Positions 57,300 to 60,834 of a DNA stretch of 64,000 bases are shown piece after piece. The notes under the pieces were generated by a model, which saw nothing but the letters and a program-made list of their open reading frames with translations, did not search any database and had not been told where the DNA came from. The stretch comes from a virus (Duplodnaviria; Caudoviricetes). A program made the translations under genes and the position numbers. Where the stretch lies: positions 1 through 64,000 of the IMG/VR virus record IMGVR_UViG_3300038530_002083. The stretch is one strand, 5' to 3'. The stretch's first letter is position 1. Each line of letters begins with the position of its first letter.

Positions 57300-57775
57300 A
57301 TTCCTTTAAACTAATGTATATTAGGCTGTATTGTATTAGATATATTTCTATTACGAAGTAATAAAGATCTCTAATTAGAGTATTCTTTAATAGATTATCT
57401 TCTTAGATTCAAATTCTAGATAGATCTACCCTATACCCCAACAACCTTAAAAAGGAAACTTTATAATCAGTTTTATGTCGAGTGTATAGGGATAGTTCTT
57501 CTAGAAAAAGAATCTAAGAAACATCGTAGTGATTATCTTCTTGAGTTCATTATTCTGAGCTTTCCACCTTCTGCATTAGGAGAAGGAATTGTTGCTACGG
57601 TTTATATTATCATCAGCCGTAGTAGAGTTACTTTTCATCGTCTAATAAGAAACGATAGGCTATTCGCACCTAACTCTAGGAGACTTGCTCTCCTCTACCC
57701 AGTGCTACACCACCATTGCTATCTTGTGGTACGTTATAGAGAGGACGATAGGTAGTCCCAAACCTCTCACGCTTA
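57300..57775 (-). ncRNA. candidate large structured non-coding RNA (or RNA-primed origin)
   Basis: No ORF of 60+ aa, dedicated promoter, many nested stems with G-U pairs favouring the minus strand; 3' end uncertain. Confidence 0.5.
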
Positions 57776-57780
57776 CTTAC

Positions 57781-57810
57781 ATAATAACACGACATTATAC
57801 TTGTTGTCAA
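57781..57810 (-). promoter_or_regulatory. sigma70-type promoter (leftward)
   Basis: TTGACA-N18-TATTAT with extended TG. Confidence 0.65.
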
Positions 57811-57854
57811 ACAATAATTCACTGTACCCTCATTAATTAATCATAAAATAATGT

Positions 57855-57882
57855 TTGACAAACAAATTATATGTAGTACAAT
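57855..57882 (+). promoter_or_regulatory. sigma70-type promoter (rightward, divergent)
   Basis: TTGACA-N16-TACAAT. Confidence 0.65.
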
Positions 57883-57913
57883 GTATAAAACAGAGGATGA
57901 TAAGGAGAATAAA

Positions 57914-58258
57914 GTGTCACCATTAGATAAACTATATGAAGCCTATGTACAAGACTGCCCAGACAACCCCTACAACGAGCTAGACTTCTCTATAGAGCTA
58001 AATCAGAGTCAAGCAGATATGATGTATAAGGATTGGGAGAAGTACCGTCAGACGTTCACATGGGGGAGATCCTTAGATGCACAAGGTAATTATTTAGAAG
58101 AACCACAAAGAATTAAACTTTGCAATATATCAGACGATCATCTAGAATCTTTAATACTTTGGACAGTTAGAGATTATGAACCTTATATTCATGTTGCTTT
58201 TTGTCGGGAGTTAGGATATCGTAGAGAAAATAATATTTATGTGGAGGAGTACAAATAA
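57914..58258 (+). CDS. hypothetical protein
   Basis: TAAGGAG RBS before GTG 57914. Confidence 0.65.
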   Translation: MSPLDKLYEAYVQDCPDNPYNELDFSIELNQSQADMMYKDWEKYRQTFTWGRSLDAQGNYLEEPQRIKLCNISDDHLESLILWTVRDYEPYIHVAFCRELGYRRENNIYVEEYK

Positions 58259-58398
58259 TGTATGATATTTTAATTAATGCAGGATATAATCATTATGAAG
58301 CTTGTTACTTTATTGAGGAACATACAGGAGCAAGTAAACTTAGCCCTAAAGAGGAGGTATTTGATATGATTAATTGTGAGAGTTTTTGGTATGAGTAG
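58258..58398 (+). CDS. small hypothetical protein (46 aa)
   Basis: GGAGGAG RBS, TAATG coupling; stop overlaps the start region of 58391. Confidence 0.55.
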   Translation: MYDILINAGYNHYEACYFIEEHTGASKLSPKEEVFDMINCESFWYE

Positions 58399-59164
58399 GT
58401 TACTATTATCAGCGGATTTAAAGGGGGTAGGTAAACTTTTAGATGGTTCTATCCAAAGCAGCTATTGGTTAGGTTTTTTGTTAGCAGATGGCAGTTTTAG
58501 TTGTAAAGGTACTCGTATAAAGTTGGCGTTAGGCGATAAAGACCAAGGTACTGTTAAAGATTTTGTAGAGTACCTTGGTAAAAAATATACAACACCTCAC
58601 TGTGGTGCTTTTATGAGTAAAGATTATGTACCTAAGATTGCGGAAATACTGGGATATGAAGAGGGGAAACCGAAAACATATAACCCACCTACTGTGAATT
58701 TCGAAGACGTTATGGACAAGGAACAACTTATAGCATTTTACATAGGGTTTATAGACGGTGACGGTTGTATAAGAAGACAACCTAAAAGAGCTACAACATC
58801 TATAACTATTAAACTCCATAGATCTTGGTGTAATTTTTTACAAAACTTAGTAGATTTTTTATATGATTTTTATGAAGCTGGCGTACCACCTAATGCAAAA
58901 ATAAATAACGCAGGTTATGCAAGTGTATGTATAGGAAATTTCAATGTATGCAAAGGTCTAAAAGTATTTAGTAATAAACTAAATGTTATGAAAAGGAAGT
59001 GGGATATAATAGATGAAGATTTGTTACTTAAAGGTGAAGAATATAGTATTTTTTGTTATAAAGTTAAAAAATTAAATGAATATAACGTCAGTATTAAAGA
59101 TATATCGGACGTTTTAGATTGTGGGTATCAATCAGTAGTAAGAGTTCTTGCAGGAGGGTATTAA
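58391..59164 (+). CDS. free-standing double-motif LAGLIDADG homing endonuclease
   Basis: YWLGFLLADGSF and FYIGFIDGDGCI. Confidence 0.85.
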   Translation: MSRLLLSADLKGVGKLLDGSIQSSYWLGFLLADGSFSCKGTRIKLALGDKDQGTVKDFVEYLGKKYTTPHCGAFMSKDYVPKIAEILGYEEGKPKTYNPPTVNFEDVMDKEQLIAFYIGFIDGDGCIRRQPKRATTSITIKLHRSWCNFLQNLVDFLYDFYEAGVPPNAKINNAGYASVCIGNFNVCKGLKVFSNKLNVMKRKWDIIDEDLLLKGEEYSIFCYKVKKLNEYNVSIKDISDVLDCGYQSVVRVLAGGY

Positions 59165-59195
59165 AATTTCTAGATTACTATTATCAGCGGATTTA
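58400..59195 (+). repeat. 21-nt perfect direct repeat (58400-58420, 59175-59195) flanking the LAGLIDADG gene
   Basis: TTACTATTATCAGCGGATTTA twice, both read as LLLSADL. Confidence 0.95.
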
Positions 59196-59696
59196 CATCT
59201 TGGACATAATAATATACACAAGTATCGGGCTGTTTTTGCTGATGCAGATGAACACCATAATACTATTTTTGAAAACTTAGCGACAACTGTAAGAAAAAGT
59301 GATACTTTATACTTGTTAGGGGATGTTGCTTTTGACCATTACTGGTTAGATAAAATTAAGAGTATTAATTGTCGGCATAAGAAACTTATTTGCGGAAACC
59401 ATGATACTGAACGTGGAATTACTATGCGACACTTAGTAGATGTATATGATAGTATACATGCATTATACTGTAAGAGAAATTATTGGTTTAGTCATTGCCC
59501 TATACATTTTCAAGAGATGAGAGGTCGTAATGGATGTATACATGGGCACTTGCATAATAGGATAGTTGAAGAACTTCACCACGACGAATACACAGATGAA
59601 GTATATTGGACAACAAAAGATAAAAGATATATTAACGTATGTCTAGAACATACAGGTTATAAACCTATTACTTTTGAGGAGGTAATTAATAAATGA
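59166..59696 (+). CDS. calcineurin-like metallophosphoesterase (start uncertain, probably ATT 59166)
   Basis: SADLHLGH, LGD, GNHD, SHCP, HGHLH. Confidence 0.85.
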   Translation: MSRLLLSADLHLGHNNIHKYRAVFADADEHHNTIFENLATTVRKSDTLYLLGDVAFDHYWLDKIKSINCRHKKLICGNHDTERGITMRHLVDVYDSIHALYCKRNYWFSHCPIHFQEMRGRNGCIHGHLHNRIVEELHHDEYTDEVYWTTKDKRYINVCLEHTGYKPITFEEVINK

Positions 59697-59875
59697 AATA
59701 TATTAAAGCAGAAATTATTGTTTACGTAGAGGATTCATGGTATGATTCAGAATCTGTAGAAGAAAAGGAGTGGTTTTACTCTGTGCTAGAAGATGCATCA
59801 TCGTTGTTTATACCAGACGTAGGTGATACTATACCTTGTGATGTAACAAAATTAGAGGAGATAGAAAATGTTTAA
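59693..59875 (+). CDS. hypothetical protein
   Basis: GAGGAGG RBS. Confidence 0.6.
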   Translation: MKYIKAEIIVYVEDSWYDSESVEEKEWFYSVLEDASSLFIPDVGDTIPCDVTKLEEIENV

Positions 59876-60248
59876 AGAAAATAGACCATCAGATACAACT
59901 TGTAACGATACACCTCTTGTATGGGGAGGAACACCAGATAGTGATAATTATCGTATGGAAGAATCCTCATGGGAGCTTAACCCTGTATCAGATGAGGTTA
60001 CACAAGCATACTATGATCAGATTCAAGCTAAAACTTGTCGAAAAGGGTTGATCTCTGTCTTAAAACACATGGCAGACAATAATATCAATATTTCAGGTAC
60101 TAGAGGTTACGTATATAGTAGTTCAGGACAAGCTAAAGTTGTGGAAAATTATAACCCATACCACCCTAACCATCTTACAAGAGGCATGGGTATTAGACAT
60201 AAAATGATGGAAATTTATGAAAGGGAGATTATTGATGGCAAGCGCTAA
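59868..60248 (+). CDS. hypothetical protein
   Basis: GAGGAG RBS. Confidence 0.6.
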   Translation: MFKENRPSDTTCNDTPLVWGGTPDSDNYRMEESSWELNPVSDEVTQAYYDQIQAKTCRKGLISVLKHMADNNINISGTRGYVYSSSGQAKVVENYNPYHPNHLTRGMGIRHKMMEIYEREIIDGKR

Positions 60249-60834
60249 TACAAAAAGGAAACCTAAAGAAGAAATAGAGGGTAACGAGTTATATAATACC
60301 CCTGAAATTGCTTTAGAATCTTTCTATGACCAGTACGGTTATGTATTTGATGATTATAAAAAGTATTATGACCCTTGTAATGGTTTAGGGAAGATTTCAA
60401 ATTTCCTAAAAAGCATTGGTAAAGAGTGTATTACTTCGGATATAGTAGATTACGGTTGTCAAGACTCTGTACAAGACTTCCTGACTTTAGATAGATTACC
60501 TGAAGGGGTTGACTGTGTGGTTATGAACCCACCATTTACATTAACTGAAGCTTTTATAGACAAGTTTTATGAGCTTGCGTCTAAAGAGGAGTCACCTATT
60601 ACGCTTCTTATGTTTAATAGGATGACTACAATAGAATCTAACAGTAGAAGCCGAAAACTCAAATATGGAGAATGGCATATGGAAAATATGTTTCAGTTTG
60701 GTTTCAGGGTAAGCTGTACTAAAGGGGTAAATGAAGAACCTACGGCAAACTCTGTAGCATACGCTTGGTTTGAATTTATTAAGGATGACTTCGAGTACGA
60801 TTACGCTCCATCACTACATTGGATAACAAAATGA
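60235..60834 (+). CDS. DNA amino-methyltransferase (probably N6-adenine)
   Basis: YNTP, YDPCNGLG (motif I), DFL, VMNPPF (motif IV), YAWF. Confidence 0.85.
   Translation: MASANTKRKPKEEIEGNELYNTPEIALESFYDQYGYVFDDYKKYYDPCNGLGKISNFLKSIGKECITSDIVDYGCQDSVQDFLTLDRLPEGVDCVVMNPPFTLTEAFIDKFYELASKEESPITLLMFNRMTTIESNSRSRKLKYGEWHMENMFQFGFRVSCTKGVNEEPTANSVAYAWFEFIKDDFEYDYAPSLHWITK

Follow-up and report, generated by a model that had tools for sequence, protein, structure and literature searches.

Free-standing homing endonuclease genes (HEGs) of T-even phages, which encode the Seg and Mob enzymes, home without an intron: they cut HEG-less relatives, co-convert flanking markers and are polymorphic for presence or absence. 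Seg and Mob are GIY-YIG or HNH enzymes whose genes have their own starts and occupy intergenic positions, and to our knowledge no T-even free-standing HEG has been reported in fusion with a duplicated start of a host gene. Intronless HEGs, LAGLIDADG or GIY-YIG, are found inside protein genes of fungal mitochondria as mORFs (Allomyces macrogynus atp6; Glomus atp6, atp9, cox2 and nad3; PMC3630166). The yeast WHO elements at FBA1 cut a conserved gene in an allele-specific and splicing-free manner and replace one end of it with each integration (Coughlan et al., 2020; PMC7282813). Here we describe a LAGLIDADG HEG located within the first codons of a calcineurin-like metallophosphoesterase (MPE) gene in a marine tailed phage (Caudoviricetes). 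It lies in a stretch of 64,000 nucleotides (the window) covering positions 1 to 64,000 of the IMG/VR record IMGVR_UViG_3300038530_002083. We read the locus, with a probability of about 0.65, as a free-standing LAGLIDADG homing cassette that is specialised on phage MPE genes and carries its own copy of the MPE start.

The virus record is complete (93,581 bp, with terminal repeats) and contains a single copy of the endonuclease; the features described below all lie on the plus strand. The HEG frame of 257 codons extends from ATG 58391 to a TAA stop at 59162–59164 (58391–59164). Its first ten codons (58391–58420, MSRLLLSADL) are codons 1–10 of the resident MPE gene, a relic that now forms the N-terminus of the endonuclease and whose last two residues are the motif I Asp-Leu of the catalytic site. 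In this left copy, ATG AGT AGG (58391–58399) is followed by a 21-nt block (58400–58420) and then by AAG GGG of the HEG body, and the frame runs for 247 further codons beyond MSRLLLSADL. A single base, A 59165, separates the stop from ATT TCT AGA (59166–59174), after which the identical 21-nt block recurs (59175–59195, codons 4–10 of the re-formed gene) and continues into CAT CTT GGA CAT (HLGH). This exact direct repeat, read directly, was recovered independently by a script at 58400 and 59175. The MPE frame behind the HEG is complete (59166–59696, 176 codons plus stop), with intact D-x-H, GD and GNHD motifs. Direct reading therefore confirms the anatomy proposed in the initial annotation, which was made from the letters alone: an intronless HEG opening with the MPE N-terminus, and a second, complete gene start one base past its stop. 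That annotation also described the element as rebuilding the host gene. The gene is indeed whole again, but a better description is that the cassette supplies an extra start for the gene and leaves the resident start stranded, a layout that recurs in a second locus, L019, described below. The annotation further proposed that the 21-nt repeat may allow precise excision.

The two copies of the gene start are not identical throughout. The nine nucleotides preceding the repeats differ at four positions, one being the third base of the start codon, two lying in the serine codon (AGT/TCT) and one in the arginine codon (AGG/AGA); apart from ATG versus ATT, these differences are synonymous. Four differences in 9 nt against none in 21 nt is an uneven distribution (p ~0.005, hypergeometric). 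A Megablast search of the region gave no match in a set of phage records from which close ones may be absent. The same structure is present in an independent IMG/VR contig (L004), and the encoded proteins occur on several contigs from NCBI, ENA, JGI and Logan, so that the structure of the locus is not an assembly artefact.

The long open reading frame (ORF) matches Pfam PF14528 at 24.3 bits (cut-off 22.5) and phrog_4645 at 9.5e-13, and contains two LAGLIDADG motifs, YWLGFLLADGSF and FYIGFIDGDGCI. The catalytic residues D33 and D124 and the block G119–G125 (GFIDGDG) are invariant across 56 relatives. An AlphaFold (AF2) model (pLDDT 94.8, pTM 0.89), disordered only in residues 1–5 (pLDDT <50), shows the pseudo-dimeric alpha-beta-beta-alpha-beta-beta-alpha fold, together with a helical C-terminal domain that resembles a helix-turn-helix. 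The top Foldseek matches of the model were I-AniI, I-SmaMI, I-LtrI, I-Tsp061I and PI-SceI, with a probability of 1.00, and WhiA was also among the best; a sequence search of the PDB found nothing. The family matches, the invariant aspartates and the predicted fold bear out the assignment as a monomeric, two-motif LAGLIDADG homing endonuclease, for which site-specific cleavage is predicted. The relic peptide is absent from relatives of the HEG, which begin 10–17 residues ahead of a conserved KLLDGS core (one as MAKGVKKG...). These start positions place the junction at 58420/58421 between host codon 10 and approximately codon 3 of the endonuclease.

Free-standing LAGLIDADG genes had been called uncommon in phages. 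For relatives of this family, this holds in cultured-phage records (14 of 50,697) but not in uncultured viral contigs: a profile search of IMG/VR confirmed 234 relatives or more, and the loci of 80 of these were surveyed. The best relative in a single metagenome scan was 38% identical, and the closest relative of the HEG, P0122, was not found in IMG/VR.

We then examined the gene into which the HEG is set. The downstream frame matches phrog_547 at 2.9e-41. Residues D9, H11, G52-D53 and G77-N78-H79-D80 are conserved in 96–100% of 119 MPE homologues and are all present in the window; these homologues carry PF12850 or PF00149, while the window protein alone has no Pfam match at E<=0.1. By sequence, the gene is a calcineurin-like MPE gene. 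Among named phages, the nearest relative is Alteromonas phage PT11-V22; the two genomes are syntenic around the locus, and the PT11-V22 MPE is, over its full length, 64% identical to that of the window. The three codons found at 58391, ATG AGT AGG, also open the PT11-V22 gene, where they overlap the stop of the gene upstream. In the window, the frame from ATG 58391 likewise overlaps the stop (TAG, 58396–58398) of an upstream ORF of 46 codons (58258–58398), the arrangement of a native, translationally coupled start region. The first ten codons of the HEG can thus be identified with the native start of the MPE gene. We also observed a GGAGG 8 nt ahead of an internal in-frame ATG (58366) of the 46-codon ORF (58353–58368), which could supply ribosomes to the coupled ATG 58391, whose own Shine-Dalgarno (SD) sequence is weak (-2.7 kcal/mol).

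The initial annotation predicted that HEG-less alleles would read MSRLLLSADLHLGH without interruption, and such alleles exist. Proteins of sister phages (P0002, P0003, P0244, P0245 and P0247) open directly with MSRLLLSADLHLGH and are 79–90% identical to the window MPE. Over residues 1–96, P0244, encoded on a contig of 93,717 nt, differs from the window protein only by M1I, T22A and I23V. The locus is thus polymorphic for presence or absence, with HEG-bearing alleles in the window and L004 and HEG-less alleles such as P0244.

The presence of identical codons on both sides of the 775-nt insert raises the question of whether it is removed after transcription or during translation, as a group I or group II intron, an intein, through a +1 frameshift at UAU-UAA that yields a fusion protein, or by a long bypass between the two GAT TTA copies. 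A scan of 57500–60500 against Rfam found no RNA family at E<=1, and the gene resumes a single base past the HEG stop. A group I splice that restored the native protein would require one position of the identical repeat to be both U, at the exon end, and G, at the intron end, a rule that cannot be met; nor is the group II 5′ consensus GUGYG present after the left copy. An intein is incompatible with the TAA at 59162–59164 and with the +1 shift of the host frame relative to that of the HEG. The release factor gene prfB has a frameshift site that GGAGGG-UAU-UAA superficially recalls, but tRNA-Tyr could not re-pair on AUU and the nearest downstream Tyr codons are in the wrong frame. Bypass of the type seen in T4 gene 60 is likewise contradicted, since a stop would be expected behind the take-off GAT TTA, where the left copy instead runs on through a sense codon into the open 247-codon frame of the HEG, and the window MPE has no coding gap. 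Removal of the insert by any of these routes is therefore exceedingly improbable, in keeping with the view of the initial annotation that the element is free of RNA and protein splicing.

If the insert remains in the message, the MPE has to be started anew behind the HEG. An SD sequence, GGAGGG, lies at 59153–59158 within the last HEG codons (A-G-G-Y), and its GGAGG (59153–59157) is 8 nt ahead of ATT 59166–59168. Pairing of the 16S tail ahead of this ATT is predicted at -10.8 kcal/mol and ends 7 nt before the codon; for the unambiguous starts of the same operon the values were -8.4 to -13.5 kcal/mol, and the pairing ended 3–9 nt before the start. Among the 119 homologues, 87% have Met in the column of ATT 59166, and 96–97% have no residue ahead of that column. 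In related loci, too, the MPE start abuts or overlaps the HEG stop, and in several (L013, L023 and L061) an SD sequence lies in or just past the HEG tail. Promoter-like sites were no more frequent in our scan than in shuffled sequences, no terminator-like site was seen on the plus strand between the HEG and the MPE gene, and RNA folding of 59110–59230 gave no significant structure (z +1.08). Taken together, the position of AUU at the initiator Met of homologues and the correctly spaced SD ahead of it, as in genes initiated at AUU, suggest that the MPE is probably translated from AUU 59166. The rare AUU initiator put forward in the initial annotation is thus favoured by SD strength and spacing and by the Met column, and the start itself is one that we infer from sequence.

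The other candidate start is an in-frame TTG at 59148–59150, within the HEG tail. With the same architecture, a start here would yield a product of 182 amino acids with a six-residue MQEGIK extension, and ATT would be an internal Ile codon derived from a mutated ATG. TTG is a canonical start, it was chosen by every gene caller (P0001, P0241, P0246), and in an E. coli reporter AUU and UUG were similar, both giving 6–8 times less product than AUG (PMC3592434). Against this, TTG 59148 lacks a usable SD (-2.4 kcal/mol, 2 nt upstream), as the initial annotation had noted, and the site would be covered by ribosomes finishing the endonuclease. The extension would precede the Met column, where nearly all homologues have no residues, and the strong SD is positioned for 59166, as in neighbouring genes. 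We regard initiation at TTG as a minority possibility, and AUU 59166 as the likelier start.

Alternatively, the MPE may be effectively silenced in HEG carriers, loss of the ATG being the first step in the decay of a dispensable gene whose intact frame reflects recent insertion. The non-canonical start would fit such decay, as would the Gln that replaces a 99%-conserved His in the second carrier lineage (L004, below) and the MPE genes of some related loci that have no obvious start or contain small inserts. Codons 2 and 3 have been recoded synonymously (AGT/TCT, AGG/AGA), however, which implies that they were translated. In addition, the HEG tail retains a strong and correctly spaced SD, the catalytic motifs of the window MPE are all intact, and long downstream frames are intact even in interrupted relatives. 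Silencing is a distinctly unlikely explanation, ranking above only removal of the insert.

Evidence for recent movement of the cassette came from comparison with L004, whose proteins also occur on a genome of 95,059 nt. Window positions 58363–59374, comprising the cassette and a flank interpreted as co-converted, differ from L004 at only 3 of 1,012 nt. Outside this tract, upstream divergence is ~2.6%, differences in the 46-codon ORF being mostly at third codon positions, and past 59375 there are 10–51 differences per 100 nt, indels included; overall, the flanks diverge by 3–25%. A near-identical tract between diverged backbones points to a recent exchange of the HEG together with ~70 codons at the beginning of the MPE gene, and by sequence it indicates transfer through homing and co-conversion. 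Within the tract, two of the three differences fall at 59204 and 59207 (L004 2028–2031), where GGA CAT in the window reads GGC CAG in L004. The resulting H14Q substitution could reflect decay of the MPE in carriers, or it could be a target-site escape mutation. Separately, L004 has an extra ORF of 60 codons (898–1080) between a 135-codon ORF and the 46-codon ORF, which is not present in the window (junction near 58258).

We next surveyed the 80 loci for the genes that neighbour relatives of the HEG. An MPE profile detected an MPE gene within the 2-kb flanks of 37 loci, in contrast to only ~2% of phage records overall. About 28 of these MPE genes were directly downstream on the same strand and six were head to head with the HEG. 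With few exceptions among the 37 loci, the HEG adjoined the 5′ end of the MPE gene; in L041 the MPE gene was instead upstream, in the same orientation, and in L048 and L074 it was ~1 kb downstream. Adjacency of this frequency over background marks the HEG family as a target-specific lineage, and, by sequence, a previously unrecognised LAGLIDADG lineage specific to MPE genes.

One of these loci reproduces the layout of the window. In L019, a contig of 94.6 kb (1962–2050 and 2815–2860), the HEG opens with an MPE relic, MYFTSDT, and is coupled to the gene upstream through TGATG. The MPE is re-formed behind it as ATG ACC TAC TTT CTT AGT GAT ACC CAT, with an ATGA overlap with the HEG stop. The two copies have diverged, including a TCT/AGT serine switch, but the arrangement of a relic and a new start is the same. 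A search for DNA-level 5′ and 3′ repeats around the other 80 relatives gave only chance 12-mers. The peptide KFYISD, which occurs both inside the HEG and at the MPE start in L055, was considered as a relic, but the match is within what chance would give in the survey and was not used. In L010 (2830–2948), the HEG ORF extends in another frame over the first ~17 MPE codons, including motif I, a long coding overlap at the presumed target.

These observations can be assembled into a mechanism. The cassette would consist of the endonuclease gene together with its own MPE gene start, placed where the resident gene broke inside its metal-binding motif (S-A-D-L | H-L-G-H). The first ten codons of the resident gene would have been stranded and fused in frame to the HEG, probably by illegitimate repair of the broken gene from a donor cassette. 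The HEG would then be translated from the native start of the host gene, coupled to the upstream ORF. The MPE would be read from AUU 59166 by ribosomes recruited through the SD in the last HEG codons, by ribosomes terminating two bases upstream, or by both. Spread would occur when HEG-less alleles are cut and then repaired from a copy with the cassette, ~200 nt of the MPE gene being carried along. Both known relics end inside motif I, directly after Asp-x in the window and there or two codons later in L019, which places the likely cut site of the endonuclease within this motif. The putative target in the window is the motif I stretch at 59184–59207 (S-A-D-L-H-L-G-H), and small inserts in related MPE genes also fall in or next to motif I.

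Several observations weigh against this account. AUU initiates poorly, and the same frame also offers TTG 59148. In the re-formed copy, motif I seems to be intact and still follows 21 native bases, and a 22-bp site centred on the junction would therefore still be present in the carrier. Identity at 21 of 21 positions beside differences at 4 of 9 is ill-suited to a simple origin from a foreign donor allele. Finally, H14Q in L004 affects a motif I His that is 99% conserved. The homing cassette could be protected from its own enzyme in more than one way. Resistance may lie in bases to the right of the junction (synonymous sites, A22/V23, or GGC CAG in L004). Alternatively, the enzyme may recognise an extended, bipartite target, its C-terminal helical domain contacting the region around the start codon. 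The right copy has this region in recoded form, and in the left copy it no longer adjoins motif I. Speculatively, the concentration of differences in one part of the duplication (4/9 versus 0/21) would fit such a target. Some self-cutting may also be tolerated. The available clues to resistance of the element-borne copy are limited to recoded codons 1–3, A22/V23 and GGC CAG of L004. We had also considered a resistance cluster at codons 22–28 (AVFADAD), but the case is weakened by the HEG-less P0244 and P0247, which read TIFADAD, leaving only A22/V23 as carrier-specific.

The MPE genes that adjoin relatives of the HEG showed a further peculiarity. In 14 distinct alleles the gene was interrupted in or next to motif I by an insert of 1–12 nt. 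The commonest grammar was a codon, an in-frame stop, 0–6 further bases, and the same or a synonymous codon, these inserts being 5–12 nt long and lying ~100–200 nt past the HEG stop. Examples are GAC CTG TAA CTG CAT (L038 and L076), CAT TAG CAT (L028), CTT TGA CTT (L024), ACC TA ACT (L051), ACT TA ACT (L069), ACT TA ACA (L023), ACC TAGTG ACC (L021 and L066), ACA TAGTGA ACT (L032) and ACC TAGGTAGGA ACT (L025). Inserts of this grammar occur also in L092–L098. With the matched codons joined, S-D-x-H-F-G-H is perfectly restored. On analysis, these inserts are candidate short programmed ribosome hops, like that of T4 gene 60/MobA. The ACC-TAG type turned up, by pattern scan, in seven contigs of 31–413 kb, four of them new. 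These seven contigs represent five gap variants, and their downstream frames of 186–187 codons are intact; three of the four new contigs have no endonuclease within 2.5 kb upstream. Between L038 and L076 the dN/dS ratio was 0.34, but the 5′ part may have spread by conversion, so that the ratio leaves selection after the interruption unproved.

Other inserts had a different form. L011 (2765–2785) and L013 (2770–2790) contain a one-base insert after TTT, with rare CGG/CGA in the zero frame (CAT TTT C GGC and CAC TTT C GAC), and L055 (2620–2640) and L071 (2640–2660) contain 7-nt TAG-C inserts between H-F and G-H. From their sequences, the inserts of these four loci resemble +1 frameshift sites located at motif I. 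In 10 of the 14 interrupted alleles, and in none of 10 uninterrupted ones, a strong hairpin was predicted (-16 to -27 kcal/mol, z -2.6 to -6.8). It occupies 35–45 nt ending at the motif I Asp codon, its 3′ arm consists of the F-T-S-D codons, and it stops just before the take-off codon. The arms covary (for example, GGAGGTG/CACCTCC versus GGACGTG/CACGTCC), and the hairpin may possibly act as a 5′ stimulator of forward slippage.

A broader picture, which we put forward tentatively and hold to be rather doubtful, is an arms race between one LAGLIDADG family and motif I of phage MPE genes, in which carriers keep the gene working by unusual decoding: a split bipartite target, re-initiation at AUU and, in the relatives, hopping or shifting. 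For the window, the recoded ATT TCT AGA would be part of immunity, and MPE synthesis would depend on re-initiation after the HEG. Should this be true, the inserts of the relatives would constitute a second natural family of bypass sites after that of T4 gene 60, again tied to a homing endonuclease. The related loci in any case offer many candidate short bypass and +1 frameshift sites with a testable 5′ hairpin stimulator, and the window locus is a natural test bed for AUU initiation and for termination-reinitiation. The HEG family could help to explain mosaic boundaries in marine phage genomes. It is also abundant in uncultured phages and has a predictable target, the D-x-H-x-G-H codons, which makes it useful for meganuclease discovery.

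The window element shares its homing logic with the T-even free-standing HEGs, and its fusion to a duplicated gene start sets it apart from them. Full-text literature searches turned up no account of a phage endonuclease joined to a second copy of the start of its host gene. For the inserts that contain stops in relatives (L021, L025, L038 and others), the best match is the MobA/gene 60 cassette of T4, in which the alteration of a neighbouring target gene protects the carrier and moves together with a homing endonuclease (bioRxiv 10.1101/2022.08.31.505936). That system involves another gene and another nuclease family; the window has no coding gap, and the inserts of the relatives are 1–12 nt rather than 50. 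For the restart, the closest parallel is E. coli infC (and pcnB), where an AUU start likewise has its SD in the preceding gene and a stop nearby; infC starts as UAA GGU AUU, where the window reads UAA A AUU (PMC3592434). The infC AUU serves autoregulation by IF3 (PMC3592434), whereas that of the window follows a selfish gene.

The cassettes that replace gene ends are the nearest in design. As in the mORFs, part of the gene is duplicated into one resident and one element-borne copy, synonymous changes can distinguish the copies, and the HEG can be in phase (PMC3630166). The HEG of the window indeed lies between a resident and an element-borne copy of a gene end, but the replaced end is not the 3′ one. 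The mORFs replace the 3′ end and place the endonuclease after the new C-terminus (PMC3630166); in the window the 5′ end is duplicated, the resident start serves the HEG, and translation of the host gene has to begin anew downstream of the HEG. The element moreover resides in a phage and not in a mitochondrion, and 21 of the 30 duplicated bases form a block of complete identity. The WHO elements also act at the 3′ end; they reside in nuclear eukaryotic genomes, encode an intein-derived nuclease with zinc fingers and leave relics in clusters (Coughlan et al., 2020; PMC7282813). The window element thus works like the mORF and WHO cassettes but differs from them in its 5′ position, its phage host and its AUU restart. 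By bringing a spare start and taking over the resident one, it represents a third route, besides introns and inteins, by which a selfish nuclease can occupy the most conserved part of a protein gene.

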